From: a bacterium
GTDB lineage: Bacteria; Patescibacteriota; Patescibacteriia; Patescibacteriales; UBA12465
Reading direction: 5' to 3'
Assembly: GCA_035402825.1 (NCBI GenBank)
Contig: DAONDZ010000001.1
Span: 172,839-236,838 of the forward strand
Length of the DNA: 64,000 nucleotides
In this document: positions 30,129 through 50,416 of the stretch, piece after piece
Layout of the letters: each line of letters opens with the position of its first letter
Numbering within the stretch: position 1 is the first letter of the stretch
Position numbers and translations under genes: made by a program
Notes under the pieces: generated by a model
The model's database searches: none
Seen by the model: only the letters and a program-made list of their open reading frames with translations
What the model was told of the DNA's origin: nothing

Positions 30129-30349
30129 CTGCAGAAAACGGGCAATAGCCCGTTTTTGTTTTGCTCTTGATGTGATATAATTAGGATATAAATAGATAAA
30201 ATATATGAGATCTAAAAAAACCGCGAGCGTTTCTGAGACTGAAAAAAATATTAAGCAGCTGATTGCCGATTATCAAAATCGCCTTTTGATGTTGCAAGCC
30301 GAACAGCAGAAGATAATTGACGCTAATTCTTCTTCTCAAACTTAAAGAT

Positions 30350-36887: not shown

Positions 36888-36992
36888 GTGCTCTTCCGAG
36901 AGAGGATATATAAACAATTAAATTATTAATGAAACAAAGCAACGGACAATATTTTCGGCATTGATAAATTAATATTACTTTTTATAAAAAAA
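36888..36992 (+). repeat. Junction J1 (attL-like): degenerate core, element left arm and promoter
   Basis: gtgctct-tccgagagaggatatataaacaa...cattgataaattaatattactttttataa aligns with 38310-38416, including an identical 29-mer. Contains TTGATA, 16 nt spacer, TATAAA (36961-36988). Confidence 0.6.
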
Positions 36993-37118
36993 AGTCAATT
37001 AATTTAAAATTATAGTTTTATAAAATAATTATCTCTATTTTTAGAGATTTTCTCAGTTCTCGCTATTACTGAGTGGCATGTGTTATAATATGAATACTAA
37101 GTATTAATTTTGTTTTAT

Positions 37119-38216
37119 ATGAAATCTAAAAAAGCCTTTACTCTCATTGAACTCCTCGTTGTGATTGCCATCATTGGCATCCTCGCTACTATTTCCGTTA
37201 TTGCTTTAAACAATGCTCGCGCTAAATCGCGTGATGCTAAAAGAATTGGAGATATCAAGCAAGTCTCAACTGCTTTAGAGCTTTTCTTTAATGATAAAAA
37301 TCGTTATCCGACTGTGGAAGAATGGAATACCGGACAGATTTTTTCTACTACTACCGGCGCTACCTCGACTTATATGCAAATCATTCCAGCCGCCCCAACG
37401 CCTAACGATGGCTCTTGCACAACTGGACAAAACACTATTAGCTATACTCCAACACTCGATGGAGCTTCCTATACTGTCTCTTTTTGTTTAGGCAATACTA
37501 CTGGGGCCCTTGATTCCGGACCGAAGTGCTTGACTCCTGGAGGCGTTTTGGATGTAGATTGTTCAATCACTATTCCTGCCGCCCCTAGCTTTGCTTGTGG
37601 CACTGATAGTGTGACTTATGAAGGTGAAGTCTATCCTACTGTTTATATTGATAATACTGGTGGCCACAATTTGAGCCTTCCTGGCCAATGTTGGTTCGCC
37701 AAAAACCTCAATGTGGGAACTATGGTTGCTGGTGCTGCCAATCAAGCTGATAACGGTATTATAGAAAAGTATTGTTATAATGATAATACTTCCAATGAAT
37801 GTGCTACTGATGGCGGTTTGTATCAATGGGATGAAGCTATGCAATATTCCGTGGCTGAATCGGCTCAGGGCATTTGCCCTGACGGGTGGCATTTGCCGAC
37901 TGACGCAGAACAAAATACCTTGGATCAAAATTTAAATGACACCACTTGTAATGCTAATAGAACTGGAGATTGGGGTTGTGCTAACGCCGGTACTAAATTA
38001 CAGGACGGTGGGACTTCTGGACTTAATGTTCTCCGAGCCGGCACTCGTTATATCAATGCGGCGTTCTACGCTCGAGGGGTGTACACGATTTTTTGGTCAT
38101 CGTCTATTAGCGGTTCGGCCGCCTGGGGTCGGAATGTGACCACTAACAACGCTGCCGTTTACCGCAATTCTTATGACCGAACCACCGGCTATTCTGTGCG
38201 TTGTCTTCAGGACTAA
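37119..38216 (+). CDS. Type IV pilin-like protein with a C-terminal FISUMP-type domain (paralogue 1, not matched by the TR)
   Basis: KAFTLIELLVVIAIIGILA prepilin-type N-terminus. GGLYQWDEAMQY...GICPDGWHLPTDAEQNTL...YSVRCLQD. ATG 37119 preferred. Extended -10 TGtTATAAT at 37081-37089. Confidence 0.8.
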   Translation: MKSKKAFTLIELLVVIAIIGILATISVIALNNARAKSRDAKRIGDIKQVSTALELFFNDKNRYPTVEEWNTGQIFSTTTGATSTYMQIIPAAPTPNDGSCTTGQNTISYTPTLDGASYTVSFCLGNTTGALDSGPKCLTPGGVLDVDCSITIPAAPSFACGTDSVTYEGEVYPTVYIDNTGGHNLSLPGQCWFAKNLNVGTMVAGAANQADNGIIEKYCYNDNTSNECATDGGLYQWDEAMQYSVAESAQGICPDGWHLPTDAEQNTLDQNLNDTTCNANRTGDWGCANAGTKLQDGGTSGLNVLRAGTRYINAAFYARGVYTIFWSSSISGSAAWGRNVTTNNAAVYRNSYDRTTGYSVRCLQD

Positions 38217-38248
38217 TTCGACTATTTTGATCTTTTGGAAGGCCGAAT

Positions 38249-38267
38249 CACTAGAATATTTCTAGTG
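38249..38267 (+). terminator. Hairpin downstream of paralogue 1
   Basis: cactagaa / tat / ttctagtg. No strong T run, so terminator function is uncertain. Confidence 0.35.
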
Positions 38268-38273
38268 GTATAA

Positions 38274-38399
38274 ACAAAAAGAGAACTGGCACAGGCCAGT
38301 TCTCAGAAAGTACTCCTCCGAGAAGAAATATCGAAACATTTAAACGAAATTGTTGAGGAAATTAAACTTTGGTCGATGTTTTTGACATTGATAAATTAA
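38274..38399 (+). pseudogene. 3'-terminal remnant of a serine recombinase gene spanning junction J2
   Basis: Reads TKRELAQASSQKVLLREEISKHLNEIVEEIKLWSMFLTLIN*, compared with NKRELATASSPKVPLREKISKRFNEIIGEIKRWARFLDECPF* at the end of the 43659-45236 recombinase. Nothing upstream of it is recombinase-like. Confidence 0.65.
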
Positions 38400-38415
38400 T
38401 ATTACTTTTTATAAC
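38388..38415 (+). promoter_or_regulatory. Candidate promoter in the element left arm
   Basis: TTGATA, 16 nt spacer, TATAAC. Identical 29-mer at 36958-36986. A perfect TTGACA also sits at 38382-38387. Confidence 0.4.
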
Positions 38416-38489
38416 TATAAAAGTCAACAAAGTTAAAATCCTCTTTTGTTTATTCAAAAACCTAATTAAAATTTACTCCCACTATTGTC

Positions 38490-38499
38490 GGGGGGGGGG
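38490..38499 (+). repeat. G10 homopolymer tract in the promoter region of the DGR target gene
   Basis: tcGGGGGGGGGGcagaaaaTGtTATAAT. The tract ends 10 nt upstream of the -10 hexamer. Confidence 0.9.
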
Positions 38500-38506
38500 C
38501 AGAAAA

Positions 38507-38515
38507 TGTTATAAT
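38507..38515 (+). promoter_or_regulatory. Extended -10 element (TGtTATAAT) upstream of the DGR target gene
   Basis: The same TGtTATAAT is found upstream of paralogue 1 (37081-37089). Confidence 0.5.
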
Positions 38516-38551
38516 AAAACTAGATTAAGCTAATTATTAATTTATTTTAAT

Positions 38552-39697
38552 ATGTTAAAGAGAAAAGCCTTCACTCTAGTAGAACTATTGGTAGTAATAG
38601 CCATCATTGGCCTATTAGCTACTCTATCAGTCATTGCTCTAAATAGTGCTAGAGCTAAGTCTAGAGATGCTAAGAGAGTAGCTGATGTTAAACAGATCTC
38701 TACGGCTCTAGAGCTATTCTTCAATGATGCTGGCAGATACCCCACTGATCTAGAATGGGCTAGTGGCTCTTTAGAGTATAATGGTCAGACCTATCTCTCT
38801 ATTATCCCTTCTGCCCCTACCCCTGCTGATGGTAGCTGTGACTCTACTACCAACTCTTTTTCTTATACCCAGGATAATAGTGGTGAATCATATACTCTCA
38901 CCTTCTGTACTGGTGGAGTAGTGGGTTCTCTTACTGCTGGTGAGCTTTGTGCTACCCCGGGTGGGATGGCGGGGTGTGGGGGAGGCGGGGGCTGTATTCT
39001 TGATTGTACTAACAAAAACTGTGGTGATGATGGCTGCGGTGGTAGCTGTGGTGTTTGTACCGGCAATGATGTCTGTACTAATGGTACCTGTACTACTCCT
39101 CCTTTTGCTTGCGGAGACTCTGTCTCCTATGGCGGTGAATCATATCCCACGGTTCTGATCGGAGCCCAGTGTTGGTTTGCTAAGAATTTAAATGTTGGGG
39201 ATATGGTGACCGGGGTCACCCCTCAGTCAAACAACGCTATTGTAGAAAAATATTGTTATAATGATGACGCTTCTCATGAATGCGCCACCTACGGTGGCCT
39301 ATACCAATGGGATGAAGCTATGCAATATTCTGTCACCGAAGGGGCCCAAGGTATTTGTCCTGACGGTTGGCATATCCCAACTGACGCTGAACAAAATACT
39401 TTAGACCAAGGTTTAAATGATACTACTTGTAATGCTAATAGAATTTTAGCTTGGGACTGTGCCAATGCCGGTACCAAATTACAGGCTGGAGGTACTTCTC
39501 ATTTTGAAGGCCTCTTGGCCGGCTACCGCAATACCAATGGGTCGTTCAACGATCAAGGGACGTACGCGCTCTTCTGGTCATCTACTATTAGTGGACCGGA
39601 TGCCTGGGATCGGCTCTTGTACACTGGCTACGCGACCGTTCGCCGCGGTCATGATGACCGAGCCTACGGCTTTTCCGTGCGTTGCCTTCAGGACTAA
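38552..39697 (+). CDS. DGR variable (target) protein: type IV pilin-like N-terminus, Cys/Gly-rich linker, FISUMP-type C-terminal domain
   Basis: KAFTLVELLVVIAIIGLLA; CGGGGGCILDCTNKNCGDDGCGGSCGVCTGNDVCTNGTCT; GGLYQWDEAMQY...GFSVRCLQD. The last 178 nt form the VR. Confidence 0.9.
   Translation: MLKRKAFTLVELLVVIAIIGLLATLSVIALNSARAKSRDAKRVADVKQISTALELFFNDAGRYPTDLEWASGSLEYNGQTYLSIIPSAPTPADGSCDSTTNSFSYTQDNSGESYTLTFCTGGVVGSLTAGELCATPGGMAGCGGGGGCILDCTNKNCGDDGCGGSCGVCTGNDVCTNGTCTTPPFACGDSVSYGGESYPTVLIGAQCWFAKNLNVGDMVTGVTPQSNNAIVEKYCYNDDASHECATYGGLYQWDEAMQYSVTEGAQGICPDGWHIPTDAEQNTLDQGLNDTTCNANRILAWDCANAGTKLQAGGTSHFEGLLAGYRNTNGSFNDQGTYALFWSSTISGPDAWDRLLYTGYATVRRGHDDRAYGFSVRCLQD
39518..39695 (+). other. 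DGR variable region (VR)
   Basis: 178 nt aligned without gaps to TR 40277-40454. There are 16 mismatches, each opposite a TR adenine. Confidence 0.9.
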
Positions 39698-39700
39698 TTC

Positions 39701-39727
39701 GACTATTTTGACTATTTTGACTATTTT
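39701..39727 (+). repeat. Three tandem copies of gactatttt just after the target stop codon
   Basis: gactatttt gactatttt gactatttt. Paralogue 1 has one copy in the same place (taattcgactattttga is shared). Confidence 0.85.
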
Positions 39728-39752
39728 TCCGCCTCGTGTAAGCGAGGCGGAA
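39727..39752 (+). promoter_or_regulatory. GC-rich hairpin downstream of VR (candidate DGR target-recognition cruciform and/or terminator)
   Basis: ttccgcctcg / tgtaag / cgaggcggaa: a 10-bp perfect stem. With a t-g closing pair the loop becomes GTAA (GNRA-type). Confidence 0.55.
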
Positions 39753-39768
39753 TTAATTAAATTTTTCT

Positions 39769-40113
39769 ATGGCTACCTATGATAATTTGCCGGTGTATAA
39801 AGCCAGTTATGATTTACTGCTAGAAATATTCACTTTCAGTAAGAACATGGACAAAGAATATAAATATACCATTGGAGAAGATTTGAAAAAAGAAACCACG
39901 GCCATGATTACCAATATCTATCGCGCCAACTGCAACCAAAATAAAAAAGAGTTAATTCAAAGTGGTCGGGAAAATTTGGAAGTCATCAGATTATATTTAC
40001 GCCTAATTAAAGATTTGAAACAAATAAATTTGTTAAAATTTGTAAAGATTAATGAAATTATTGAGTCAATTTCCAAGCAATTAAATTTTTGGCAAAGTGC
40101 CATGAAATCATAA
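39769..40113 (+). CDS. avd: DGR accessory variability determinant (four-helix-bundle, 23S rRNA IVS protein family)
   Basis: 114 aa helical protein (PVYKASYDLLLEIFTFSKNMDKEYKYTIGEDLKKETTAMITNIYRAN...) sitting between target and TR as in canonical DGRs. Confidence 0.75.
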   Translation: MATYDNLPVYKASYDLLLEIFTFSKNMDKEYKYTIGEDLKKETTAMITNIYRANCNQNKKELIQSGRENLEVIRLYLRLIKDLKQINLLKFVKINEIIESISKQLNFWQSAMKS

Positions 40114-40276
40114 TGGGCCAGAGTCGTCATCGGTTACGGCCAGGGCGAGCGTGCCTCACTAGTCCAATAGTCCACTAAATTTTCTAAATTTAGTAATTGA
40201 CGGGGCAACCTGTCATTCTGCTGATTTTTTAGATAATATCAAATCAGCCGAAGAGGTTAGCGATTATTATAAAAGA

Positions 40277-40454
40277 GCCGGCAACCGCAATACCAATGGG
40301 TCGTTCAACAATCAAGGGACGAACGCGAACTTCTGGTCATCTACTATTAGTGGACCGGATGCCTGGAATCGGAACTTGAACACTGGCAACGCGACCGTTA
40401 ACCGCAATCATAATGACCGAGCCAACGGCTTTTCCGTGCGTTGCCTTCAGGACT
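40277..40454 (+). other. DGR template region (TR)
   Basis: Encodes AGNRNTNGSFNNQGTNANFWSSTISGPDAWNRNLNTGNATVNRNHNDRANGFSVRCLQD in the VR frame, with 15 AAY codons. Flanked by hairpins at 40178-40198, 40220-40248 and 40461-40487. Confidence 0.9.
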
Positions 40455-40508
40455 GGTCAAAAGGAGCCATATATCAATGGCTTCTTTTATTTTACTAAAA
40501 TATTTTTT

Positions 40509-41684
40509 ATGTCCGACAAACTTCTGGTTGACCTTTTTCAAGCCTATTACGACGCCCGACGCTATAAAAGAAATACAATGAGCGCTCTTAACTTTGAGAT
40601 TAATTTGGAGCAAAATATATTTGAATTGTATCGGGAGATAAAAAATAATACTTATCAAATTAGTCCCAGCCTAGCTTTTATTATCTTTGACCCGGTGCAG
40701 AGAGAAATTATCGCCTCGCCCTTTCGGGATCGAGTCGTGCATCACCTGGTTTTTAATTATATCAACCCCATTCTTGAAAATCTCTTTATTTCTGACAGTT
40801 ATAGCTGTCGCCAAGGCAAGGGTATTAGCTACGGAGTTAAGCGAGTCGCTCATTTTGTCCGCTCCAGTTCGCAAAATTATAGAGTTGATAATTATATTCT
40901 CAAATTGGATATTTCCGGCTATTTTATGAGTATTAACCAATCTGTTTTATATGATAAGGTAGAAAATTATTTATTAAGGCATAATGTTGATTACCCCTTT
41001 GACCTAAAATTAATTTCAGCCCTGCTAAAGAGAATTGTTTTTCACGATTATATTAAAGATTGCGTTATAAGAGGTGGAAAGACCAACTGGAAAAAATTAC
41101 CCCGCAACAAGAGTCTATTTTTCACGCCCCCGGGTTTTGGTTTGCCCATTGGCAATTTAACCTCGCAATTATTTAGTAATGTTTATTTAAATGATTTTGA
41201 CCATTATATTAAGCGGACTTTGAAATTTAAGTATTATGGTCGTTATGTCGATGACTTAATCATTATTGACGGTAGTAAAGAAAGGCTCCAAATAGCTATG
41301 GCCAAAATTGCGGAATATTTATCAACGAATCTAAACTTAAAAATTCACCCCAGAAAAATCTATTTACAGCCCTATGCCAAAGGCGTTAATTTTTTAGGCG
41401 GGATTATTAAACCCCACAGAATTTATGTCCGCCACCGGACTAAAACCAGTTTTTATCGCTCAGCGACTAAGGCTAATAATATTCTGAAGAATGTAGATGT
41501 AGAAAGGAAAGCCCTCAGGAAAATTTTATCCAGTTTTAATTCCTATTTAGGGGTGTTTGGGCAATATCAGACCTATAATTTACGCCGTAAAATATTGGAC
41601 AACAAGCTATCCTCGGATTTTTGGCGTTATTTTAGACTTGGGAAAGGTGAGTCAAGATATAGAAAAATTGTTTTAAGAAAATAA
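40509..41684 (+). CDS. DGR reverse transcriptase
   Basis: LPIGNLTSQLFSNVYLNDFD (the IGxxxSQ motif typical of DGR RTs) and YGRYVDDLIII (YxDD). ATG 40509 chosen because the longer track ORF (40413) starts inside the TR. Confidence 0.9.
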   Translation: MSDKLLVDLFQAYYDARRYKRNTMSALNFEINLEQNIFELYREIKNNTYQISPSLAFIIFDPVQREIIASPFRDRVVHHLVFNYINPILENLFISDSYSCRQGKGISYGVKRVAHFVRSSSQNYRVDNYILKLDISGYFMSINQSVLYDKVENYLLRHNVDYPFDLKLISALLKRIVFHDYIKDCVIRGGKTNWKKLPRNKSLFFTPPGFGLPIGNLTSQLFSNVYLNDFDHYIKRTLKFKYYGRYVDDLIIIDGSKERLQIAMAKIAEYLSTNLNLKIHPRKIYLQPYAKGVNFLGGIIKPHRIYVRHRTKTSFYRSATKANNILKNVDVERKALRKILSSFNSYLGVFGQYQTYNLRRKILDNKLSSDFWRYFRLGKGESRYRKIVLRK

Positions 41685-41690
41685 TTATAC

Positions 41691-42306
41691 TTATCCCCAG
41701 CAAAATGCTAGCAAATTTAAATATTTAAAAAAGTTTTTCAAATTCCCAATAAATTCACCCCTTAACCTTACCGCTAATTTATGCTATGATACATTCAGAC
41801 TTAATCAATAAAAATATATAACCTCGGGACCCATTGTTGAATAGATGTCGCTCGCATGAAACGCAAAATAAAAAAATAAAACTCATAAAATAATATCCCC
41901 TGTAAATTAGCAAAGTCTTTCTTTGCCAATTGAAACTAATTAACCAGCATTTGTCCGTGCTCGGTTTTTTTGTTTTGGCAAAGACTATTAAATTTCGTCG
42001 TCGCCTGTTTAGATAGCGAAACAGGTTAGTTGATTTCTTTGGTGTAAACATAAGCGTGTAGTTTGGTTTTAGCCTATTAGTGGTACTTGCCCGTCGCTAA
42101 TGGCTAGTTCTGTTATTAATTTCTCATTTTTGACCGTCCCCCAAGCATTGTTTTTTAGTTTTTTTTCGGCGAGGCTTGTCCGCTCGCCGAAAAAATAAAA
42201 ACAAGCTGGGGGCGGTAAATGAGATTTTAGACAAAAGTAGTGTCCGTTTGTCGTGTGCCTCTATTAGACTTGACTATAGGCACACTTAACGCCGTTATTA
42301 AACTCT
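41691..42306 (+). other. Conserved structured non-coding region upstream of Rep (copy 1): promoter, terminator-like hairpin, nested stem-loops, candidate replication origin
   Basis: Aligns with 47040-47682. TTAACC, 17 nt, TATGAT at 41762-41790. Hairpin plus T run at 41944-41976. Nested structure 42122-42224 (tctcattt...aaatgaga enclosing ttttttcggcgag/ctcgccgaaaaaa). Hairpin gtgtgcct...aggcacac at 42253-42285. Confidence 0.55.
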
Positions 42307-43098
42307 ATGGAAATTAAACCACGAGTTTATCGGCAGAAGCTGGTAGAGTCGGGTGATTATGTGGAAATATATGATTATGAGAATTTCATTAAAATTAATC
42401 AAAAGAGAAAACGAAGAAGAAATACAACCAAGAGACCTAAATTTATCGGCCCACCTACTTATTTAGATGTGCTTTGTCGAGAAACAAAAAATGGTTTTTC
42501 TCTAAGGCGAACTCGGTCAAATATTGTTAGATTGGTAAATTCTAACCCCGATTTAAAAGTATTTATTACTCTCACCTTTGATAGCCATAAATTCGGGGAT
42601 AAGCCGTTTACTGATTTTAAGGAATGTAATTTGATATTTTCTAATTTCATTAAACGACTAAAAAGGAAATATCCCGATTTAAAATATTTGGCCGTGCCTG
42701 AATTTCAGAGCGACTATTATCACCGCACCAATATTAGAAAAGAATTTGGCGGTAATATTCACTATCATTTATTGTCTAATTTGCCGTTTATTGAAAATAC
42801 TCAATTAGAAAAAATCTGGGGCTACGGATTTATTAAAATCAATAATATCCGACAGGTGTCTGCTGTCGGTCCGTATGTGGCTAAATATGTCGGCAAAGAA
42901 TTGTTTGACGGTCGTTTAAATGGGAAAAAGAAATTGTTTTATTCTCGCACTCTTAATCGCTCTAAAATCATTATTACCTACTCAAAAATAAAAGAATATT
43001 TAAACAACTTAAAATCACCCCTCAAGCTTTTGCACGAGACAACTTACAAGTCCGAGTATCTCAGCAGAGCTCGCTATCGGCTCTATAAACAAGGATAG
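42307..43098 (+). CDS. HUH-superfamily rolling-circle replication initiator (two-tyrosine type), copy 1
   Basis: Motif 1 VFITLTF, motif 2 NIHYHLLS (HUH), motif 3 GPYVAKYVGKE (Y-x3-Y). Confidence 0.7.
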   Translation: MEIKPRVYRQKLVESGDYVEIYDYENFIKINQKRKRRRNTTKRPKFIGPPTYLDVLCRETKNGFSLRRTRSNIVRLVNSNPDLKVFITLTFDSHKFGDKPFTDFKECNLIFSNFIKRLKRKYPDLKYLAVPEFQSDYYHRTNIRKEFGGNIHYHLLSNLPFIENTQLEKIWGYGFIKINNIRQVSAVGPYVAKYVGKELFDGRLNGKKKLFYSRTLNRSKIIITYSKIKEYLNNLKSPLKLLHETTYKSEYLSRARYRLYKQG

Positions 43099-43138
43099 CA
43101 AAACTGATTTTGTTAATCATACGTTCATCTAAAATATA

Positions 43139-43288
43139 ATGACTATTGAGGCTCTTAAAAAATCAATAGTAGGTCGTGGGCGACAGTATTCCGATGACGA
43201 ATTGGAGACAATTAGACGCGACTTATACCAACTGGCTCATCTGCTAGTCGAATATTATTTTAATCAGCAAAAAATATTAATAAAATAA
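43139..43288 (+). CDS. Small helical protein (49 aa), YSDDELE-RRDLY family
   Basis: MTIEALKKSIVGRGRQYSDDELETIRRDLYQLAHLLVEYYFNQQKILIK. Conserved in E_C (48518-48673). Confidence 0.5.
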   Translation: MTIEALKKSIVGRGRQYSDDELETIRRDLYQLAHLLVEYYFNQQKILIK

Positions 43289-43298
43289 ATAAAAAATT

Positions 43299-43454
43299 AT
43301 GATGAGTATAAGTAAATTAAGAAAATTGTTAAGCGAAAAGGCAAATGAATACAGCGAAGAAGAACTAGAAGAAATGCGGCGAGATATTTATACATTTGCT
43401 AATCTAGCCTTTGATATTTATAAAGAGAATCCCAGGATATTAGATAAATATTAA
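43299..43454 (+). CDS. Small helical protein (51 aa), paralogue of the preceding ORF
   Basis: MMSISKLRKLLSEKANEYSEEELEEMRRDIYTFANLAFDIYKENPRILDKY shares the YS-EELE-x-RRD-Y-x-A-L core. Confidence 0.45.
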   Translation: MMSISKLRKLLSEKANEYSEEELEEMRRDIYTFANLAFDIYKENPRILDKY

Positions 43455-43461
43455 AGCGATA

Positions 43462-43658
43462 TTGTAAAAATAAAAATATATGTTATTATCCTTAATGGAC
43501 ATAACTTATAATAGCGGAAAGCTACTATTTTCTTACATCATAATGACGGCAGATAAGTCGTTTTGATATAAAGGGAGCAGTGGCTGTTTCAACAAGGCTT
43601 TCCGCTAAGTTGTGTCCAACAGTTCACTGCTCTCTTTTTATTATTAACTTTTAACCCT
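43462..43658 (+). promoter_or_regulatory. Promoter plus about 165-nt structured leader of the recombinase gene (copy 1)
   Basis: TTGTAA, 16 nt, TGtTATTAT (43462-43489). P1 ggacataactta/taagttgtgtcc; P2 agcggaaagc/gctttccgct; long-range gagcagtg (43575-82)/cactgctc (43625-32) followed by tctcttttta. Confidence 0.5.
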
Positions 43659-45236
43659 ATGCAAAAAGGAATAATCTATTACCGAGTTTCAACCGAAGAT
43701 CAGGCTCAAACTGGTGTTAGTTTGGAGCAACAGAAAAACGCTTGTCTTGATTACGCTCAAAAGAATGATATTGAAATACTAAAATTATTTCACGATGACG
43801 GAGTGTCTGCTAAAACTACCAAAAGAGCAGGACTTCAAGAACTATTGGCGTATTGTAAAAAGAATCATAAAGAGATTGATTGTTTGATAGTCTATAAAAT
43901 TGACCGGCTATCTCGAAATGTAAAAGACTACGCCACGCTATTAATGGCTTTGGGCGAATTTAACATTAAATTCATATCTACCACTGAAACCGTTAACGAA
44001 ACTTCTAGCGGAAAATTAATTGGCACAATTATGGCCTCGTTCGCTCAATTTGATAATGATGTTAGGAGCGAAAGAGTGTCGGTCTGTATGCTCGAAAAAG
44101 CCAAGCAGGGAATCTGGTGCTTCAAGGCCCCATTCGGTTATCTAAACAGCCGTGATGAGCAAAATAGAGCCATTATAACCATTGATAAGAGTAGGGCCGA
44201 GATTATTAAAATGGCCTTTGAAAAGTTTGCTACAGGATTATATAAAATGGAGGAAATACGGATAATGATGATTAAGGCCGGATTTAAAACCTGGCGAGAT
44301 AAAGAAATAAGCATCCAAAGTGTATTTAGAATTTTGATTGATAAGTTTTATATTGGAGTTATGACGATTAAAGGTCAAGAATATCAGGGGAGCCACGAGG
44401 TTTTTATTAATGAAAACACTTTTTATAAATGTCAAAAATTAATCCGCACTTCTAAACGAGGCGACAATATTGCTTTTAAACGCACTAATGAAATGTTCCC
44501 TCTCAGAAATTTTATTTTATGCCCCTCCTGTGGTCGTCCTTTTACTGCTTGCTTGTCCCGCAACTCCCGGGGTAATTATTACCCGTATTATAGATGTTAT
44601 AACAAAAACTGCCGAGGTTATAAATCAATATCTAAAGATAAATTGGAAAATAAGTTCAGCGATTATCTTAAAAGTATAGCGCCTGATCCTTATTTTGCCA
44701 AAGATTTAAGATTAATAGTTATTGAGGAATGGGAGAAAAAAATTAAAAACTATAAAGGCAGTTTGGTTGATGCCAAAAATCAGTTAGAAGTATTGGAATT
44801 AGAAAAGTCCAAATTGATAGAAATGAAGAAAAAGGACCTGCTTGACGACAATGATTTTAAAGAAGAAATGTCTAAAGTGAAGATTAAAATTGCTGAGAAA
44901 CAGTCTACCCCAGCTGAGAATATTCCTAATAATTTTGACATTAAGAAACAATCCAAAAAAGTTTTTGATATCATTCCCGACCTTGATAAATTTTATAATA
45001 GTCTTGGTTATTATGACAAACTTAAATTTCAGAGTTTGATTTTTCCCGAAAAGGTCTATTTTGATTTTTCAGAAAGTCGAACAGCTAAAATGTCGCTAAT
45101 ATTACAGAATAAAAGAGAACTGGCGACTGCCAGTTCCCCGAAAGTACCCCTCCGAGAGAAGATATCTAAACGATTTAACGAAATTATTGGGGAAATTAAG
45201 CGGTGGGCGAGGTTTTTGGACGAATGCCCATTTTGA
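43659..45236 (+). CDS. Large serine recombinase (integrase), copy 1
   Basis: Resolvase-type catalytic domain (IYYRVSTEDQ...VYKIDRLSRN), recombinase domain, zinc ribbon (CPSCGRPFTAC...YYRCYNKNC), coiled coil. Confidence 0.85.
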   Translation: MQKGIIYYRVSTEDQAQTGVSLEQQKNACLDYAQKNDIEILKLFHDDGVSAKTTKRAGLQELLAYCKKNHKEIDCLIVYKIDRLSRNVKDYATLLMALGEFNIKFISTTETVNETSSGKLIGTIMASFAQFDNDVRSERVSVCMLEKAKQGIWCFKAPFGYLNSRDEQNRAIITIDKSRAEIIKMAFEKFATGLYKMEEIRIMMIKAGFKTWRDKEISIQSVFRILIDKFYIGVMTIKGQEYQGSHEVFINENTFYKCQKLIRTSKRGDNIAFKRTNEMFPLRNFILCPSCGRPFTACLSRNSRGNYYPYYRCYNKNCRGYKSISKDKLENKFSDYLKSIAPDPYFAKDLRLIVIEEWEKKIKNYKGSLVDAKNQLEVLELEKSKLIEMKKKDLLDDNDFKEEMSKVKIKIAEKQSTPAENIPNNFDIKKQSKKVFDIIPDLDKFYNSLGYYDKLKFQSLIFPEKVYFDFSESRTAKMSLILQNKRELATASSPKVPLREKISKRFNEIIGEIKRWARFLDECPF

Positions 45237-45240
45237 TAAT
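45111..45240 (+). repeat. Junction J3 (attP-like hybrid between units E_B and E_C)
   Basis: aaaagagaactggcgactgccagttccccgaaa-gtacccc-tccgagagaagatatctaaacga.... The left half matches 50311-50350 and the right half matches 38317-38399. Confidence 0.65.
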
Positions 45241-45250
45241 TTTTTGGTGC

Positions 45251-45279
45251 TTGACTTTTCCTCAGAAAAGTGGTATTAT
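45251..45279 (+). promoter_or_regulatory. Candidate cargo promoter of unit E_C
   Basis: TTGACT, 17 nt, TATTAT. Confidence 0.5.
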
Positions 45280-45366
45280 TATATATTCAACAAATTAGAC
45301 TTACTGTTTAATTTTAGCTATAATAAAGGAATAATACAAGAGTAAATTTATACTAAAATTAACAAT

Positions 45367-45552
45367 ATGTTAAAAAATCAAGTGAATTCCAACGAAAATA
45401 AAGTTAACCTGATAAATGATATATATAATCAGGCTTTAAACGACATTGAAAAAATTAAAAAGGAAAGGGATAAGAAAATTAAGAATGTTCTGAAAGAAAT
45501 AGATAAAAAGCACGTAGCCAAGGCTCTCAGGGATATAAAAAATTCAAAATAA
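45367..45552 (+). CDS. Hypothetical K/N-rich small protein (61 aa)
   Basis: ORF only, with coiled-coil-like composition. Confidence 0.35.
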   Translation: MLKNQVNSNENKVNLINDIYNQALNDIEKIKKERDKKIKNVLKEIDKKHVAKALRDIKNSK

Positions 45553-45583
45553 TTTTTAATATTAAAAAATAACAATCAATTAT

Positions 45584-46969
45584 ATGAATATGGAAAATCA
45601 AGTCAAGGAATCCCCATTAGAAAAAGCTAAACGGCTAAAAGCCGAAAAAGAAAGCAAAGATCAGGCCAAAATCGAGGCTGAATCTTCCGCTAAAGCTGAA
45701 AAATTGGGGGCTCTTAATAGCCAAAAACAAGGACTAGAAAATCAGCTCGATGAAATTAATTCTAAAATTGAAGCCTCGAGGGGCGAAGCTCATGAAACTA
45801 GGGACACCATGCAAGAGGCTGGCCTAAATAAAGACGAGGAATTTAAAGGTGAATATAATTCCACCATTTCTGAAGTGGCTGGAAATTTAAATGAATTGAG
45901 AAATGAAAGAAATAGAATTAAGGCCGAGTTAGAGCAAATTAATTCTAATATTGAAAATTTTGAAGTCAACGAAGCTATTTCGGAGGGCAAAGAAGCTACT
46001 CAGGAAGCGGTTGAAACTGTTAATCAGGAAAACGAGCAGGCTATAACCCAAGTAGAAAATTATCCCGGTGCTGAAGCTGGGGATATTAAGGCTTCTCAGG
46101 AAATAGTGTCCGAAATAAACCAGGAGGTTAATCAGGTTGTTAAAAATTCTGAGAATAATGTTAAAGAAGTATCCGGTGAAAAAAAAGAGGAAAAAAAGGA
46201 AAAAACATTTGATTTTGATGATATTGCCAAAGAAATCACGTCTGACGTCGCCCATCTTTTAAATGAAGAAGATAAAAGACTGAAGATAGTAAAAGAAAAT
46301 ATTTTAAAAATGCCTAAAGCGAGCAAGGGAGATTATGAAAAAATTTTCGCGGAGGAAGCTGTTAAATTTGAAAGACGCCTCTATACCGTTAACAATTTAT
46401 TAGCTAAGTTAGAATATCCGATTAATAGACTTGCATATCAAGGGAAGTATGACCAAGATCGTGATAAAAATTTGAAGAGGCAGGAAGAATTGGTTAATTA
46501 CATTAATAATATCGCCAACACTAGCCCGGCTAGCCAAAAAGAAACGGAAATATTCAATATTTTGAGAGAAAAAATTGCAAAGGCATCAGACAAGGAGACT
46601 GCGGGAGAAAAAAAAGAAAAAACATTCGAAGAGGTTAGACAGGAAGTGGCGGTAGAAGTCGGTAATCTTGTCAACGCAGAAAGAAATAAATTAAGCGACG
46701 CAGAACTAAGAGTGCGTAATTTTCAAGGAGGCAAGGAAGAATATGAAAAATTAAGACATGATATTTATGGCATTCAATGGGATGCTCGCTACCTCGTAGA
46801 TATTGATGAAAAATTGGAACCTTTAAAAATTATTGCTACACAATCTGGGAAGTTGAAAGAATTTGACAAGATGCATCAGGATCAAACTATTTCTGATTAT
46901 AAAAATTTCAATAAAGTAGCTGGAGAATTGATAGAAGATTTGGACAAAAAGATGTCAAAAACATCCTAG
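45584..46969 (+). CDS. Acidic coiled-coil protein (461 aa) with an internal duplication
   Basis: E/K/N/Q-rich N-terminal half. Two related modules each begin GEKKE(E)K..KTF(D/E) (nt about 46176 and 46604). Confidence 0.6.
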   Translation: MNMENQVKESPLEKAKRLKAEKESKDQAKIEAESSAKAEKLGALNSQKQGLENQLDEINSKIEASRGEAHETRDTMQEAGLNKDEEFKGEYNSTISEVAGNLNELRNERNRIKAELEQINSNIENFEVNEAISEGKEATQEAVETVNQENEQAITQVENYPGAEAGDIKASQEIVSEINQEVNQVVKNSENNVKEVSGEKKEEKKEKTFDFDDIAKEITSDVAHLLNEEDKRLKIVKENILKMPKASKGDYEKIFAEEAVKFERRLYTVNNLLAKLEYPINRLAYQGKYDQDRDKNLKRQEELVNYINNIANTSPASQKETEIFNILREKIAKASDKETAGEKKEKTFEEVRQEVAVEVGNLVNAERNKLSDAELRVRNFQGGKEEYEKLRHDIYGIQWDARYLVDIDEKLEPLKIIATQSGKLKEFDKMHQDQTISDYKNFNKVAGELIEDLDKKMSKTS

Positions 46970-46999
46970 ATAAATTTTACAGGATTATAAAAAAACTAC

Positions 47000-47030
47000 A
47001 AAAACGCTTTTAAAAGGGCGTTTTTGTGTT
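47000..47030 (+). terminator. Intrinsic terminator after the E_C cargo
   Basis: aaaaacgc / ttttaaaagg / gcgttttt followed by gtgttt. Confidence 0.5.
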
Positions 47031-47039
47031 TAATAATAT

Positions 47040-47682
47040 TTATCCACAGCGAAATATTAGCAAAACTAATTATTTTAAAAAATTGTTAAAATCACTCGCA
47101 AAACCAGCCCTTAACCCGCCCTCAAAAATATGGTATAATATAGTTGGACTAAAATAAAAATAAACTAACGCTGGGAACCACGGTTGAAACGGTATAAAGA
47201 TTATTGTATGCGCTTCTAAATAAAATAAAACTCAAAAAATATTATCCCTTGCAAAAATTAGCAAAGTCCAGTCTTTGCCAATTTAAACTTTAAACCAACA
47301 TTAGGCCGATGTTCGGTTTTTTTGTTTTGGTAAAGAGTAGTCGTCGGTTAGCAGTCTTGCCGTTGCTAGCCGACGACCATGCCTGTTTAGTCTCTCGTCT
47401 TTGGCTAAGCAGGTTGGTAATTCCTTTTAGGTGAACATAAGCGTATGATCTTGATTTAGCCCATTAGCGGCGTTTGCCCCGTTGCTAGTGGCTTGTTCTG
47501 TTCTTTTAATTTCTCATTATTGACGCCGCCGGACTGGATTTTTTCTTTTTTCGGCGAGTTGTCTGCGAGCCGAAAAAGAAAAACCAGCCGAGGCGGTAAA
47601 TGAGATTTTAGACAGAATAGTTCCCAGTGTGCCGTCGTCATATTAGACTTGACTATAGGCACACTTAACGCCGTGATAACTT
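47040..47682 (+). other. Conserved structured non-coding region upstream of Rep (copy 2)
   Basis: TTAACC, 17 nt, TATAAT (47111-47139, with TG). Hairpin plus T run at 47295-47329. Nested structure 47512-47608. Hairpin gtgtgcc...ggcacac at 47627-47664 with the same loop, tattagacttgactat. Confidence 0.55.
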
Positions 47683-48468
47683 ATGGAGATTAAACCACGA
47701 GTTTATCGGCAAAAGCTGATAGAGTCGGGTGATTATGTAGAAATATATGACTTTGAGAATTTCATTAAAATCAATCAAAAAAGAAAAAAGAGAAGAAATA
47801 AAAATAAAATTAAAAAAGATACTAATGACGAGGATAAAGAAAACGAGCAAAACTTAAAAAGCCATTTTTCATTGAGGCGGAGCCGATCAAATATTATTCG
47901 GTTGGTAAATTCCAACCCCGATTTAAAAGTATTTATCACCTTAACTTTTGATAGCCATAAATTTGGGGATAAGCCATTTACTGATTTTAAGGAATGTAAT
48001 TTGATATTTTCTAATTTCATTAAGCGGTTAAAACGGAAATACCCTGAATTAAAATATCTGGCCGTTCCCGAATTTCAAAGCGATTATTATCACCGCACTA
48101 ACATCAGAAAAGAATTTGGCGGTAATATTCACTATCATTTGCTGTCTAATTTGCCATTTATTCAGAGCGAAGAATTAGAGAAAATTTGGGGCTACGGATT
48201 CATTAAAATCAATAATATCCGACAGGTGTCTGCTGTCGGGCCGTATGTCGCCAAATATATCGGCAAAGAATTATTTGACGGTCGCTTAAATGGAAAGAAA
48301 AAATTGTTTTATTCGAGGACTCTTAATCGCTCTAAAATTGTTATTACTTATTCAAGAATAAAAGAATATCTCAACAACTTAAAATCACCTCTCCAGCTTT
48401 TGCACGAGACAACTTATCAGGCCGAATATGTCGGCAGAGTTCGCTATCGGCTCTATAAACAAAGGTAG
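47683..48468 (+). CDS. HUH rolling-circle replication initiator, copy 2
   Basis: Same three motifs as copy 1 (VFITLTF, NIHYHLLS, GPYVAKYIGKE). Differs mainly in the basic, low-complexity residues 30-65. Confidence 0.7.
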   Translation: MEIKPRVYRQKLIESGDYVEIYDFENFIKINQKRKKRRNKNKIKKDTNDEDKENEQNLKSHFSLRRSRSNIIRLVNSNPDLKVFITLTFDSHKFGDKPFTDFKECNLIFSNFIKRLKRKYPELKYLAVPEFQSDYYHRTNIRKEFGGNIHYHLLSNLPFIQSEELEKIWGYGFIKINNIRQVSAVGPYVAKYIGKELFDGRLNGKKKLFYSRTLNRSKIVITYSRIKEYLNNLKSPLQLLHETTYQAEYVGRVRYRLYKQR

Positions 48469-48517
48469 CCTAGTTAATAAACTAAAGTTGAATACCGACC
48501 CATTCAATATTCAACTC

Positions 48518-48673
48518 ATGATTAGTTTGACAGTCCTTAAAAAATTAATAGTAAGCCGTGGCCGACAGTATTCCGATGACGAATTGGAGACAATCAGGCG
48601 CGACTTATACCAACTGGCTCATCTTTCGTTCAAGTATTATCTTAATCAGCAAAAAAAGCTATTGTCAAAATAA
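48518..48673 (+). CDS. Small helical protein, YSDDELE-RRDLY family (E_C copy)
   Basis: MISLTVLKKLIVSRGRQYSDDELETIRRDLYQLAHLSFKYYLNQQKKLLSK. The track ORF 48428 starts inside Rep; ATG 48518 is preferred. Confidence 0.45.
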   Translation: MISLTVLKKLIVSRGRQYSDDELETIRRDLYQLAHLSFKYYLNQQKKLLSK

Positions 48674-48852
48674 AAATATATGCTAATATCCTTAATGGAC
48701 ACAATTAAATTAAGGCATAGCAACTATTCTCAAATCATAATGACGGCAGATGAGTCGTTTTGATATAAAGGGAGCAGTGGCTGTTTCAGTTATGCCTTGC
48801 ATAATTGTGTCCGACAGTTCACTGCTCTCTTTTTATTATTAACTTTAAATTT
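48662..48852 (+). promoter_or_regulatory. Promoter plus structured leader of the recombinase gene (copy 2)
   Basis: TTGTCA...TAATAT. P1 ggacacaatta/taattgtgtcc; P2 aaggcata/tatgcctt (a different sequence from copy 1, but still paired); same conserved loop and same cactgctc-tctcttttt end. Confidence 0.5.
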
Positions 48853-50382
48853 ATGGCCAAGCAAAAAGGTATTGTTTATTACCGAGTTTCTACCGAAGAT
48901 CAAGCTCAAACTGGCATTAGCTTAGAACAGCAGAAAAATGCCTGCCTTGATTATGCTCAAAAGAATGAAATTGAAATCTTGAAATTATTTCACGATGACG
49001 GCGTGTCCGCCAAAACTACCAAAAGGGCAGGCCTTCAAGAGTTGCTGGCGTATTGTAAAAAGAATTACAAAGAGATTGATTGTCTGATAGTTTATAAAAT
49101 TGACCGCTTGTCCCGAAATGTAAAAGACTACGCTACCTTGCTTATGGTTCTTGGCGAATTAAACATTAAATTCATTTCCACCACCGAAACAGTCAACGAT
49201 ACATCGAGCGGAAAGCTTATTGGCACGATTATGGCCTCATTTGCTCAATTTGATAATGATGTGCGAAGTGAAAGGGTGTCGGTTTGTATGCTGGAAAAGG
49301 CCAAGCAGGGGATTTGGTGCTTCAAAGCCCCATTTGGTTATCTAAACAGTCGAGATGGGCAAAATAGAGCCATTATAACCGTTGATAAGGAGCGTATGCC
49401 CATTATAAAAATGGCCTTTGAAAAGTTTGCCACGGGTTTATACAAAATGGAGGAAATTAGGCAGATGATGATTAAGGCCGGATTTAAAACATGGCGAGAT
49501 AAGGAAATAAGTATTCAAAGCGTATTCAGGATTTTAATTGATAAGTTCTATATTGGCGTTATGACGATTAAGGGCCAAGAATATCAAGGCAGTCATGAGA
49601 TATTTATTAATGAAAATACTTTTTATAAATGCCAAAAATTAATCCGTACTTCCAAGCGAGGCGACAATATTTCCTTTAAACGCACTAACGAATTATTCCC
49701 CTTGCGAAATTTTATTTTATGTCCCTCTTGCGGTCGGCCTTTCACCGCCTGCTTATCAAAAAATCACCAAGGCAAGCTCTACCCCTATTATATGTGCTAT
49801 AACAAACTCTGCCGAGGCTATAAGTCCATATCCAAAGATAAGCTGGAAAATCAGTTCAGCGATTATTTGAAAAATATATCGCCTGATCCTGATTTTGCTA
49901 AAGCTTATCAAGTAATTGTGGTCGAGGAATGGGAAAAAGGCTTGAAAAACTATCAAAGCAGTCTGGCTAATATAAAAAATGAATTAGATCAGTTGGAAAT
50001 AGAAAAATCTAAATTAATTGAAATGAAGAAAAAAGAGCTTTTAGATGACGAGGATTTTAAAGAGGAAATGTATAGAGTAAAAGTTAAAATAGCTGATAAA
50101 CAAAATTTTCCAGCCGACAATATCGCCGATGATTTTGATGTTAAAAAAGAATCTAAAAAAATTTTTACCATTATCCCTAATTTGGATAAATTCTATAATG
50201 GATTAAATTATTACGAAAAAATTAAACTACAAGGTTTGATTTTTCCTGAAAAGCCGGTGTTTGATTTTTCCGAAAATCGAACCCACAAAATCTCGCTAAT
50301 ATTACAAAACAAAAGAGAGCTGGCAAGTGCCAGTTCTCCGAAAGTACCCCCAAGAGGAATCGAACCTCTATGGTCAGCTTAG
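48853..50382 (+). CDS. Large serine recombinase (integrase), copy 2; its 3' end runs antisense into tRNA-Arg
   Basis: MAKQKGIVYYRVSTEDQ..., collinear with copy 1 up to ...SSPKVP, then PRGIEPLWSA* encoded opposite the tRNA. ATG 48853 preferred. Confidence 0.85.
   Translation: MAKQKGIVYYRVSTEDQAQTGISLEQQKNACLDYAQKNEIEILKLFHDDGVSAKTTKRAGLQELLAYCKKNYKEIDCLIVYKIDRLSRNVKDYATLLMVLGELNIKFISTTETVNDTSSGKLIGTIMASFAQFDNDVRSERVSVCMLEKAKQGIWCFKAPFGYLNSRDGQNRAIITVDKERMPIIKMAFEKFATGLYKMEEIRQMMIKAGFKTWRDKEISIQSVFRILIDKFYIGVMTIKGQEYQGSHEIFINENTFYKCQKLIRTSKRGDNISFKRTNELFPLRNFILCPSCGRPFTACLSKNHQGKLYPYYMCYNKLCRGYKSISKDKLENQFSDYLKNISPDPDFAKAYQVIVVEEWEKGLKNYQSSLANIKNELDQLEIEKSKLIEMKKKELLDDEDFKEEMYRVKVKIADKQNFPADNIADDFDVKKESKKIFTIIPNLDKFYNGLNYYEKIKLQGLIFPEKPVFDFSENRTHKISLILQNKRELASASSPKVPPRGIEPLWSA
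50311..50350 (+). repeat. Junction J4 (attR-like): element right arm plus core, fused to the tRNA-Arg acceptor stem
   Basis: aaaagagagctggcaagtgccagttctccgaaa-gtacccc, then caagaggaatcgaacc (the tRNA T arm, antisense). Confidence 0.65.
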
Positions 50383-50416
50383 AAGGCTGGTGTTCTATCC
50401 ATTGAACTATGGGGGC
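50345..50416 (-). tRNA. tRNA-Arg (anticodon TCT)
   Basis: Reverse complement gccccca-ta-gttc...ccagc-ctTCTaa-gctga...agagg-ttcgatt-cctct-tgggggt-a. Position 72 gives a G1-U72 pair, and this end coincides with the island junction. Confidence 0.85.

Follow-up and report, generated by a model that had tools for sequence, protein, structure and literature searches.

A candidate terminator/antiterminator leader RNA upstream of large serine recombinase genes in mobile elements of Patescibacteria-like bacteria

What is a structured noncoding region doing directly in front of an integrase gene? The question is raised by the DNA stretch analyzed here (the window, 64,000 nucleotides of a patescibacterial contig), which holds two genes for large serine recombinases (LSRs), each immediately preceded by such a region (43462-43658 for copy 1 and 48662-48852 for copy 2). 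We consider it probable that the region comprises a promoter and a cis-acting 5' leader of ~145 nt that would serve as a terminator/antiterminator switch of the integrase gene. The leader belongs to an RNA family found in small mobile elements that integrate at tRNA genes of Patescibacteria-like (candidate phyla radiation) bacteria, and we class it as a new attenuator-type RNA family that is integrase-specific and has an unusual clamp topology. Transcription of the region, termination at its U-tract, the regulatory outcome and the trigger are what we infer from sequence.

Two folds are available to each leader. In the first (P-state), the two helices P1 and P2 form a clamp between the 5' and 3' parts of the leader and close a junction that holds the hairpins P3 and P4. 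In the second (T-state), one long hairpin composed of the helices P5, T-upper and T-lower ends at a U-tract. The promoter, P1, P2 and a nearly identical core had been reported for both copies in the original prediction, and all of them are present where it placed them. The elements of copy 1 and its gene are as follows.

43462..43489, + strand: promoter with a -35 element TTGTAA, a 16-nt spacer and a TG-extended -10 element TATTAT
43497..43507, + strand: P1 5' strand (GGACATAACTT), partner 43607-43617 in the minimum free energy (MFE) fold
43513..43523, + strand: P2 5' strand (AGCGGAAAGCT), partner 43596-43606
43537..43567, + strand: hairpin P3 (ATCA.AATGAC, loop, GTCGTT.TGAT), part of both folds
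43570..43588, + strand: terminator 5' arm, consisting of the A-tract AAA, T-lower GGGAGCAGTG, one unpaired G and T-upper CTGTT
43589..43595, + strand: linker TCAACAA, whose CAAC pairs in the T-state with GTTG of the P1 3' strand to form helix P5
43596-43606 and 43607-43617, + strand: P2 3' strand and P1 3' strand, located toward the apex of the long hairpin when the T-state forms
43618..43642, + strand: terminator 3' arm (AACAG, TT, CACTGCTCTC, TTT) running into the U-tract TTTTTATT; predicted 3' end of the attenuated transcript
43659..45236, + strand: LSR gene 1 (525 aa; Pfam matches Resolvase, Recombinase and Zn_ribbon_recom), with the crossover site in its 3' end

The corresponding elements of copy 2 are these.

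48662..48689, + strand: promoter TTGTCA-16-TAATAT, TG-extended
48696..48837, + strand: leader copy 2, 138.9 bits with covariance model R1 (see below)
48697-48707/48802-48812: P1
48712-48719/48791-48798: P2
48734-48764: P3
48767-48784/48814-48832: terminator arms, with the U-tract reaching to 48837
48853..50382, + strand: LSR gene 2, start ATG 48853, with its 3' end running antisense into tRNA-Arg(TCT) at 50344-50416

A core stretch of 62 nt is 95% identical between the copies. The P1 arms read GGACATAACTT/AAGTTGTGTCC in copy 1 and GGACACAATTA/TAATTGTGTCC in copy 2, and the P2 arms differ altogether, being AGCGGAAAGC(T)/(G)GCTTTCCGCT in one and AAGGCATA/TATGCCTT in the other. In copy 1, the last -10 base lies 7 nt ahead of the first P1 base pair. 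Nucleotides 43574-43590 form the weak local hairpin P4 (GGAGCAG/CTGTTTC) in the P-state instead of contributing a terminator arm. In the alternative T helix, AAAGGGAGCAGTG pairs with CACTGCTCTCTTT and CTGTT with AACAG, followed by TTTTTATT; a pairing of the loop with cactgctc had been noticed before, and the CTGTT/AACAG extension makes it longer than was described. The P1 3' strand is contested as well, since its GUUG can pair either with CAAC of the P1 5' strand or with CAAC of the linker (P5), so that linker and P1 5' strand compete for it.

Relatives were collected by a protein search for LSR homologues, taken as a graded series, with DNA fetched around a sample of them. In all, 15 distinct leaders were found, of which 11 form group 1 (LSR 44-100% identical to the window LSR) and four form group 2 (LSR ~30%). 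Apart from the window copies, leaders of the first kind lie 5' of LSRs with 85% (L001), 95% (L002), 89% (L004, cut at the contig end), 67% (L005), 69% (L010), 58% (L090), 57% (L006), 50% (L094), 49% (L093), 47% (L007) and 44% (L097) identity to the window LSR. With a covariance model built from 11 leaders (R1), a search of the window plus 97 loci (548 kb) gave all known copies back at scores of 89-141 bits, together with weaker matches directly 5' of four distant LSRs of ~30% identity (L065, L037, L034 and L031), which constitute group 2. These leaders were detected by the covariance model alone and on inspection have the same architecture. When they were added to the R1 leaders, the resulting model (R2) scored them at 81-89 bits and found nothing 5' of ~70 other LSR loci and no additional copy in the window.

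The occurrence of the leader is narrow. Among genome contigs only two close loci were found, L002 being one of them. In the metagenome protein-alignment scan the matches listed were mostly distant LSRs, and L010 was the only close leader added there; the distant metagenome LSR loci were reused as a test set, and four of them held the group-2 leaders. Viral contigs gave no match by protein or by a P1...P1' DNA pattern. Three LSR loci of annotated phages gave no covariance-model match, and the nearest annotated phage or plasmid LSRs are at most 38% identical. All 15 leaders, and their copies at duplicate loci, lie immediately 5' of the LSR start on the LSR strand and never elsewhere in the loci searched. 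With nothing found by R2 at the ~70 other LSR loci, the leader is specific to two LSR lineages.

Two of these loci deserve separate mention. The L002 copy is nearly identical to that of the window and has a run of N exactly inside P3 (L002:417-439); its metagenome-assembled genome (MAG) is labelled Gammaproteobacteria, probably through a binning error affecting a Patescibacteria contig. At L040:68-202, R1 gave a partial match that covers the terminator half only (T arms and ATG spacing), with no P1/P2 5' strands seen upstream; this may be a degenerate or always-off variant.

Across the family the order of elements is constant. An extended -10 is followed after 5-7 nt by the P1 5' strand (9-11 nt), a bulge of 2-6 nt and the P2 5' strand (6-11 nt); then come a variable, often U-rich linker, P3, an A-tract, the T-lower 5' arm (8-10 nt), a small internal loop and the T-upper 5' arm (4-6 nt); and a CAAC, CAGU or CAGA linker leads to the 3' strands of P2 and P1, 0-1 nt, the 3' arms of T-upper and T-lower, the U-tract and the start codon. 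The TG-extended -10 sits 5-7 nt 5' of P1 in 14 of the 15 leaders, L093 having TATAAT without TG. A run of 4-6 U directly follows the stem in all 11 group-1 leaders, and the leader usually ends 11-45 nt before the LSR start codon (~130 nt or more in L065).

Support for the helices comes from covariation. Fourteen leaders were aligned by hand to the structure (A8), and MAFFT returned this alignment unchanged; L093 was left out of A6 and A8 and included in A3, A10 and the Python counts. In A8, 97.8% of 643 helix cells form standard pairs, and both sides have changed in 33 of 51 pairs (145 cells). None of 500 shuffles did as well, and sliding the partners by 1-3 columns reduced pairing to 41-50%. 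An earlier hand alignment of 10 sequences gave the same picture. Because A8 was fitted to the structure, the test was repeated on alignments not fitted in this way, namely a plain MAFFT alignment (A3) and one fitted to the T-state alone (A10). From A3, RNAalifold predicted the T helix and the apical helix P5 unprompted, and pairing in A3 amounts to 98.3% for P1, 95.1% for T-lower, 97.3% for T-upper and 95.5% for P5. In A10 the P1 columns, which were not fitted, are 98.7% paired, with both sides changed in seven of 11 pairs.

P2 is hypervariable among homologues, too variable for sequence alignment; in the hand alignment it is 99.2% paired, with both sides changed in 10 of 11 pairs. The values there for P3 are 95.3% and seven of 10 pairs. 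For T-lower, pairing is 95-96% and changes on both sides affect 6-9 pairs, P5 is 95.5-100% paired across the counts made, and P4 is 86-90% paired, its changes being mostly from G.U to G-C or A-U. The compensatory changes first read from two copies of P1 and P2 therefore continue through 13 further distinct homologues, and the terminator-like 3' helix covaries across the 15 leaders; P3, P4 and P5 are additional helices, beyond those originally described, that covariation supports.

The mismatches indicate which molecule folds. Among 686 helix cells in the 15 leaders, 641 are Watson-Crick pairs, 30 are G.U, none is A.C and 15 are other mismatches. Because a G.U pair would read as A.C on the complement, and A.C is absent, the LSR-sense strand alone is under constraint, and a double-stranded DNA site is therefore ruled out. 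A DNA site had been among the options offered by the original prediction and does not survive this count. It could have been attP, an operator made of the inverted repeats TGGACACAA/TTGTGTCCA or, related to these, the source of a guide RNA that pairs with att in the manner of IS110 bridge RNAs. A recombinase gene is adjacent, and the arms of P1, the helix with the strongest sequence conservation within group 1, are inverted repeats. An LSR attP would be an imperfect inverted repeat of ~50 bp that flanks the crossover dinucleotide at an element junction. The attP candidate was nevertheless rejected, because the junction repeats put the crossover near 45150 and 50350, in the LSR 3' ends near GTACYCC and ~1.5 kb from the leader. 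LSRs recognize att sites through protein domains. A guide RNA (IS110 bridge RNA or seekRNA) was rejected too: the complementarity between leader and att is at chance (longest matches of 7-10 nt at eight loci, compared with a mean of ~8 and maxima of 11-14 for shuffled leaders), and the adjacent enzyme is a Resolvase/Recombinase/Zn-ribbon LSR, not one of the DEDD type. We assign this whole set of explanations next to no probability.

A constraint on one strand could also reflect folded single-stranded DNA, in particular a single-strand origin (sso) of a rolling-circle element that primes the lagging strand. The elements in the window encode an HUH-type Rep (PF23343), and sso elements are ~150 nt long, strand-specific, heavily paired and noncoding, and tolerate G.T as well. 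However, the same structure is found in L007 and L094, where the fetched flanks show replication genes of the AAA_25 or Toprim type but no HUH Rep, and at the group-2 loci, which have no Rep nearby. The extended -10 5-7 nt before the structure and the U-tract just before the LSR start are features of an RNA, and the alignment shows no conserved loop motif of the CS-6 type, making an sso highly improbable. Since elements without Rep carry the leader, a promoter precedes it and a U-tract ends it, we conclude that the folded molecule is most likely an RNA. The presence of the leader with AAA_25 or Toprim genes in place of HUH Rep further implies that it travels with the LSR and not with the replication module.

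Where the family keeps its sequence bears on what such an RNA could recognize. All invariant columns of A8 that were located lie in helices or in the U-tract. J12, J23 and the P3 loop differ among homologues in length and sequence, and the sequences of P1 and P3 are kept within each group while P2 drifts. In a metabolite or ion riboswitch, the P2/P3/P4 three-way junction would be the aptamer, and a ligand would stabilize the P-state and prevent termination. A junction on the long P1-P2 stem followed by a terminator platform is the classic layout, and such a riboswitch would be an orphan, as no known class matches. Known aptamers, however, retain a conserved unpaired core, whereas the conserved columns here are paired or part of the U-tract, the junction strands and P3 loop vary, and the integrase gene suggests no obvious metabolic ligand. 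A riboswitch is a distinctly poor candidate for these reasons.

Comparison with Rfam 15 at gathering thresholds identified only six tRNAs in the whole window, in line with the earlier remark that the structure was not recognized as any known riboswitch or leader, as no such family rose above its threshold. A permissive scan of 43400-43720 returned sub-threshold miRNA-like hairpins, the best being mir-6 with 32 bits against a gathering threshold of 58. A T-box leader, which would have a stem I with a specifier loop and carry the T-box sequence in its antiterminator bulge, was considered and rejected: the permissive scan gave no match to it, and the P4 loop, UGG in copy 1, is UUUUC, AUUAC or AUCC elsewhere.

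The 5' end of the leader might instead be translated, which as a mechanism would be appealing. Under ribosome-coupled attenuation, a leaderless mini-open reading frame (mini-ORF) would begin at an AUG overlapping the start of P1 (ATGGACA), and a ribosome on its first 15-24 codons would keep the P1 and P2 5' strands unpaired and favor the terminator. An NTG overlaps the P1 start in 14 of the 15 leaders (ATG in 7/11 and TTG in 3/11 of group 1; TTG, GTG or ATG in group 2), the spacing from the -10 would place the transcription start at or beside it, and ORFs of 15-24 codons follow in most leaders. Against a mini-ORF, L093 has ACG and L034 stops after four codons; neither the length, frame and stop position nor the peptide of the ORF is conserved; P1 base pairs account for the T and G of NTG; and the differences among homologues are helix-compensatory and not synonymous. 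We regard it as very unlikely.

The reading as a terminator/antiterminator switch depends on the two folds being alternatives. In copy 1 the MFE structure is the P1/P2 fold (-49.2 kcal/mol, z = -5.1, none of 200 shuffles as good), and for a slightly longer stretch of copy 2 it is the long alternative hairpin (-49.2 kcal/mol, z = -3.7). The P1 3' strand records both pairings. Column 123 of A10 (G, U or A) forms eight CG, four AU and three UA pairs with column 10 in P1, and seven CG, four AU, three UA and one UG pair with column 107 in P5; column 126 likewise follows columns 7 and 104. Because column 123 covaries with both partners, both pairings of the P1 3' strand are likely to be functional. 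The T-lower 5' arm also has two partners, its P4 partner and the T 3' arm, and T cannot form unless P4 opens. Conserved pairings that exclude each other, one of them part of a terminator, are the hallmark of an attenuator, and T-lower pairs as GGGAGCAGTG/CACTGCTCTC and is followed by TTTTTATT, the stem and U run of an intrinsic terminator.

In the nearest-neighbor model, the energies of the enforced P- and T-states are 0.5-8.2 kcal/mol apart in 15 of 15 leaders, with P usually lower in group 1 and T lower in group 2. When growing prefixes were folded, P2 and then P1 became the MFE structure once their 3' strands had been made in all 14 leaders, and T became the MFE structure only after its complete 3' arm, and in just six of the 14. 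For refolding from one state to the other, findpath gave a barrier of 25-40 kcal/mol along the best nested route; this heuristic sets barriers too high and takes no account of pseudoknotted intermediates. Neither pseudoknots nor proteins enter the energy models.

A stand-alone small RNA gene would account for part of the same evidence. T would be a constitutive terminator, perhaps forming a pseudoknot with P1/P2, the product would be trans-acting or stable, and the integrase would depend on leak-through or on a weak promoter within the U-tract. The unit does run from a promoter to a terminator-like hairpin followed by a U-tract; P1/P2 and T have no nucleotide in common and could coexist; and a weak promoter-like match overlaps the copy 2 U-tract (48811-48839). 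Yet P5 is built in part from the P1 3' strand, with which it covaries, implying a functional state in which P1 is open. Only 0-1 nt separate the P1 3' strand from the T 3' arm, and in a full P1+P2+T pseudoknot the 6-10-nt linker on the other side would have to bridge the ~21-bp P1-P2 stack, an arrangement that by our own geometric estimate would be sterically strained at best. The constant position of the leader on the LSR strand, immediately 5' of the LSR start in 15/15 distinct leaders and the duplicates, also argues against an independent gene, which leaves a small RNA an unlikely explanation. Alternative folds are preferred over a static pseudoknot because of the dual covariation, P4, the 0-1-nt linker and the close energies. 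Between the pseudoknot and the terminator/antiterminator choice left side by side originally, the switch is thus supported by the two covarying partners of the P1 3' strand and the similar energies, and the pseudoknot is not favored.

Several observations weigh against a terminator/antiterminator switch. All of the evidence is sequence-based, the strongest pair statistics were obtained with an alignment that had been fitted to the structure by hand, and the sample consists of 15 distinct sequences from two clades in metagenome assemblies. No leader precedes the comparably related LSRs of L092 (51%), L096 (46%) and L009, L011 and L012 (41-43%); since it is absent from equally related LSR genes, the leader is dispensable. 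That P1/P2 and T have no nucleotides in common makes the strained all-helix pseudoknot conceivable, and nearest-neighbor models forbid pseudoknots. The terminator itself is atypical: it lacks the compact short-loop form, a simple terminator scan with a loop limit of 8 nt made no call, and its apical part is unusually large and structured. Its arms lie ~35-40 nt apart, with T-upper and P5 occupying the gap to give one long irregular hairpin. Finally, the U-tract is weak in three of the four group-2 leaders (UUUGGCAUAU or UUUGGUUUAU). In those three, the start codon lies just 14-16 nt past the hairpin, and translation, through concealment of the ribosome landing site, may be the main step at which the T hairpin acts.

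For a switch of this kind, the following sequence of events is proposed. In the P-state, the 5' end of the transcript would pair ~100 nt downstream, with P1 stacked on P2, and close the three-way junction; P4 would sequester the terminator 5' arm, and integrase would be made. In the T-state, P1 and P2 would be open, the P1 3' strand would pair with the CAAC linker (P5), and the terminator arms would join, stopping transcription before the integrase gene. If read through, the T hairpin would also bury the ribosome landing region. Because in the model the clamp is the most stable fold once its 3' strands exist and the computed barrier is very high, the choice of fold is probably co-transcriptional. 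The default would be the clamp, and hence read-through, and a fold picked during transcription would stay trapped if the numbers are roughly right. Termination would then require that the P1 and P2 5' strands be held over a window of ~100 nt, or that P5 form quickly and locally.

The input of the switch would accordingly be something that blocks or stabilizes the 5' clamp. A protein, an RNA or polymerase speed is the more likely effector, as inferred from the structure, over a small-molecule ligand; a metabolite aptamer is unlikely because no invariant unpaired nucleotide is seen in the family. More speculatively, the leader could be the receptor of a specific signal (an element or host protein, an RNA, or a small molecule outside the known classes) that licenses integrase synthesis only at the appropriate time, such as upon arrival in a new cell or ahead of excision; we offer this as a tentative possibility. 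A direct part of the RNA in recombination directionality is a possibility without support here.

The elements that carry the leader are small. Each unit in the window consists of an HUH-type Rep (PF23343), a small ORF, the noncoding region and the LSR. The second unit lies 5.2 kb downstream of the first, and its repeated blocks are 84-90% identical to those of the first. The window LSR is matched at 100% by a protein of an uncultured bacterium, and the nearest loci are in Patescibacteria MAGs, in keeping with a host of the Patescibacteria type. The small ORF is the 5' neighbor of the leader.

43299-43454: ORF of 51 aa, 5' of leader copy 1

A small helical ORF of ~50 aa such as this, with the motif ...EELEx(L/M)RxDxYxxAxxxFD..., is conserved just 5' of LSR genes and is kept with or without the leader, also 5' of the LSRs in L009, L011, L012 and L016. 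It gave no Pfam match and may encode a directionality or regulatory factor.

Alignment of four junctions defined the att sites. A left arm is common to 38.2, 45.1 and 50.3 kb (window positions 38226, 45060 and 50260) and a right arm to 36.9, 38.3 and 45.1 kb (36888, 38310 and 45144), all within 36888-50416. The crossover lies near GTACYCC within the LSR 3' end, beside tRNA-Arg, and because of this position the LSR C-termini differ (...PLREKISK... versus ...PRGIEPLWSA). The arrangement suggests three integrative elements in tandem beside tRNA-Arg(TCT).

~36.9-38.3 kb: element A, degenerate, without LSR
38.3-45.15 kb: element B, carrying a diversity-generating retroelement (DGR)
45.15-50.35 kb: element C

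On the minus strand, a G+C-rich hairpin with a T-run lies inside the LSR 3' coding region at 45114-45139 and 50320-50333, where it could serve as a terminator of the tRNA-Arg gene once the element has integrated. Contigs of ~3 kb were checked for a circular free form and showed no terminal overlap.

The DGR spans 37110-41684 and includes the following parts.

40413-41684: reverse transcriptase
39769-40113: bAvd
40277-40454: template repeat
39518-39695: variable repeat, which differs from the template at template adenines only
38037-38214: second, more diverged variable repeat

The DGR target proteins (37110-38216 and 38552-39697) have a pilin-like N-terminus, and a Pfam scan of 38552-39697 gave N-methylation and Fib_succ_major matches. 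The cargo of element C includes a 461-aa coiled-coil-like protein (45584-46969) with no Pfam match. Elsewhere in the window, a 1698-aa ORF occupies 30317-35413, upstream of tRNA-His.

Serine integrases are key tools of genome engineering and drivers of the spread of mobile elements, and to our knowledge control of their expression at the RNA level is almost undescribed. A compact, self-contained two-state leader of ~145 nt with control over an integrase would add a new regulatory module and a rare covariation-supported RNA family from Patescibacteria. It would give a handle on the timing of integration by very small elements (Rep, small ORF and integrase), which can carry cargo such as a DGR. 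The attenuator architecture is unusual in having an antiterminator clamp, formed by the 5' end with a distal segment, around the terminator 5' arm, and it could become a design template. Should the leader prove to be a signal receptor, no dedicated RNA switch of a serine integrase would have been known before it, and mobile elements of the candidate phyla radiation would have supplied a new class of orphan regulatory RNA.

Literature searches returned no description of a leader RNA for serine recombinases, so that comparison has to be made with leaders of other genes. Riboswitches with a terminator platform share the long closing stem, the three-way junction and the alternative pairing directly 5' of the gene, but no invariant unpaired core is seen here and no Rfam class matches. 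The BglG/LicT RAT, PyrR and TRAP leaders also adopt exclusive folds between which a helix-binding protein could decide, and the retention of P1 and P3 sequence while P2 drifts is as expected for protein-contacted helices; they differ in that no RAT, PyrR or TRAP sequence motif is present here and the association with an integrase is new. In lambda int retroregulation (sib), too, an RNA structure limits integrase synthesis in a temperate, integrative element, and att lies inside or beside the int transcript, such that the 3' end of the mRNA differs between the free and the integrated state. However, sib acts from the 3' end via RNase III on a tyrosine-type integrase, whereas here a 5' leader and terminator precede a serine-type enzyme.

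By analogy, the functionally closest system known to us is attenuation of the pT181 repC and pIP501/pAMbeta1 repR type. There, as proposed here, a 5' segment pairs with a distal "preemptor" and blocks a downstream intrinsic terminator, occupation of that segment leads to the terminator, the decision is co-transcriptional and the setting is a small mobile replicon. As to an antisense promoter, no minus-strand promoter match was found inside 43496-43642; by eye, the minus strand of group 1 has TTGAAA-16-TATATC, without the conserved final T of the -10 and absent from group 2. An antisense RNA could also be encoded in trans. The gene here is a serine integrase and not rep, and there is no sequence similarity between the systems. 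The topology also differs, as in the leader described here the terminator 5' arm lies inside the clamp loop and the clamp 3' strands lie inside the apical loop of the terminator.

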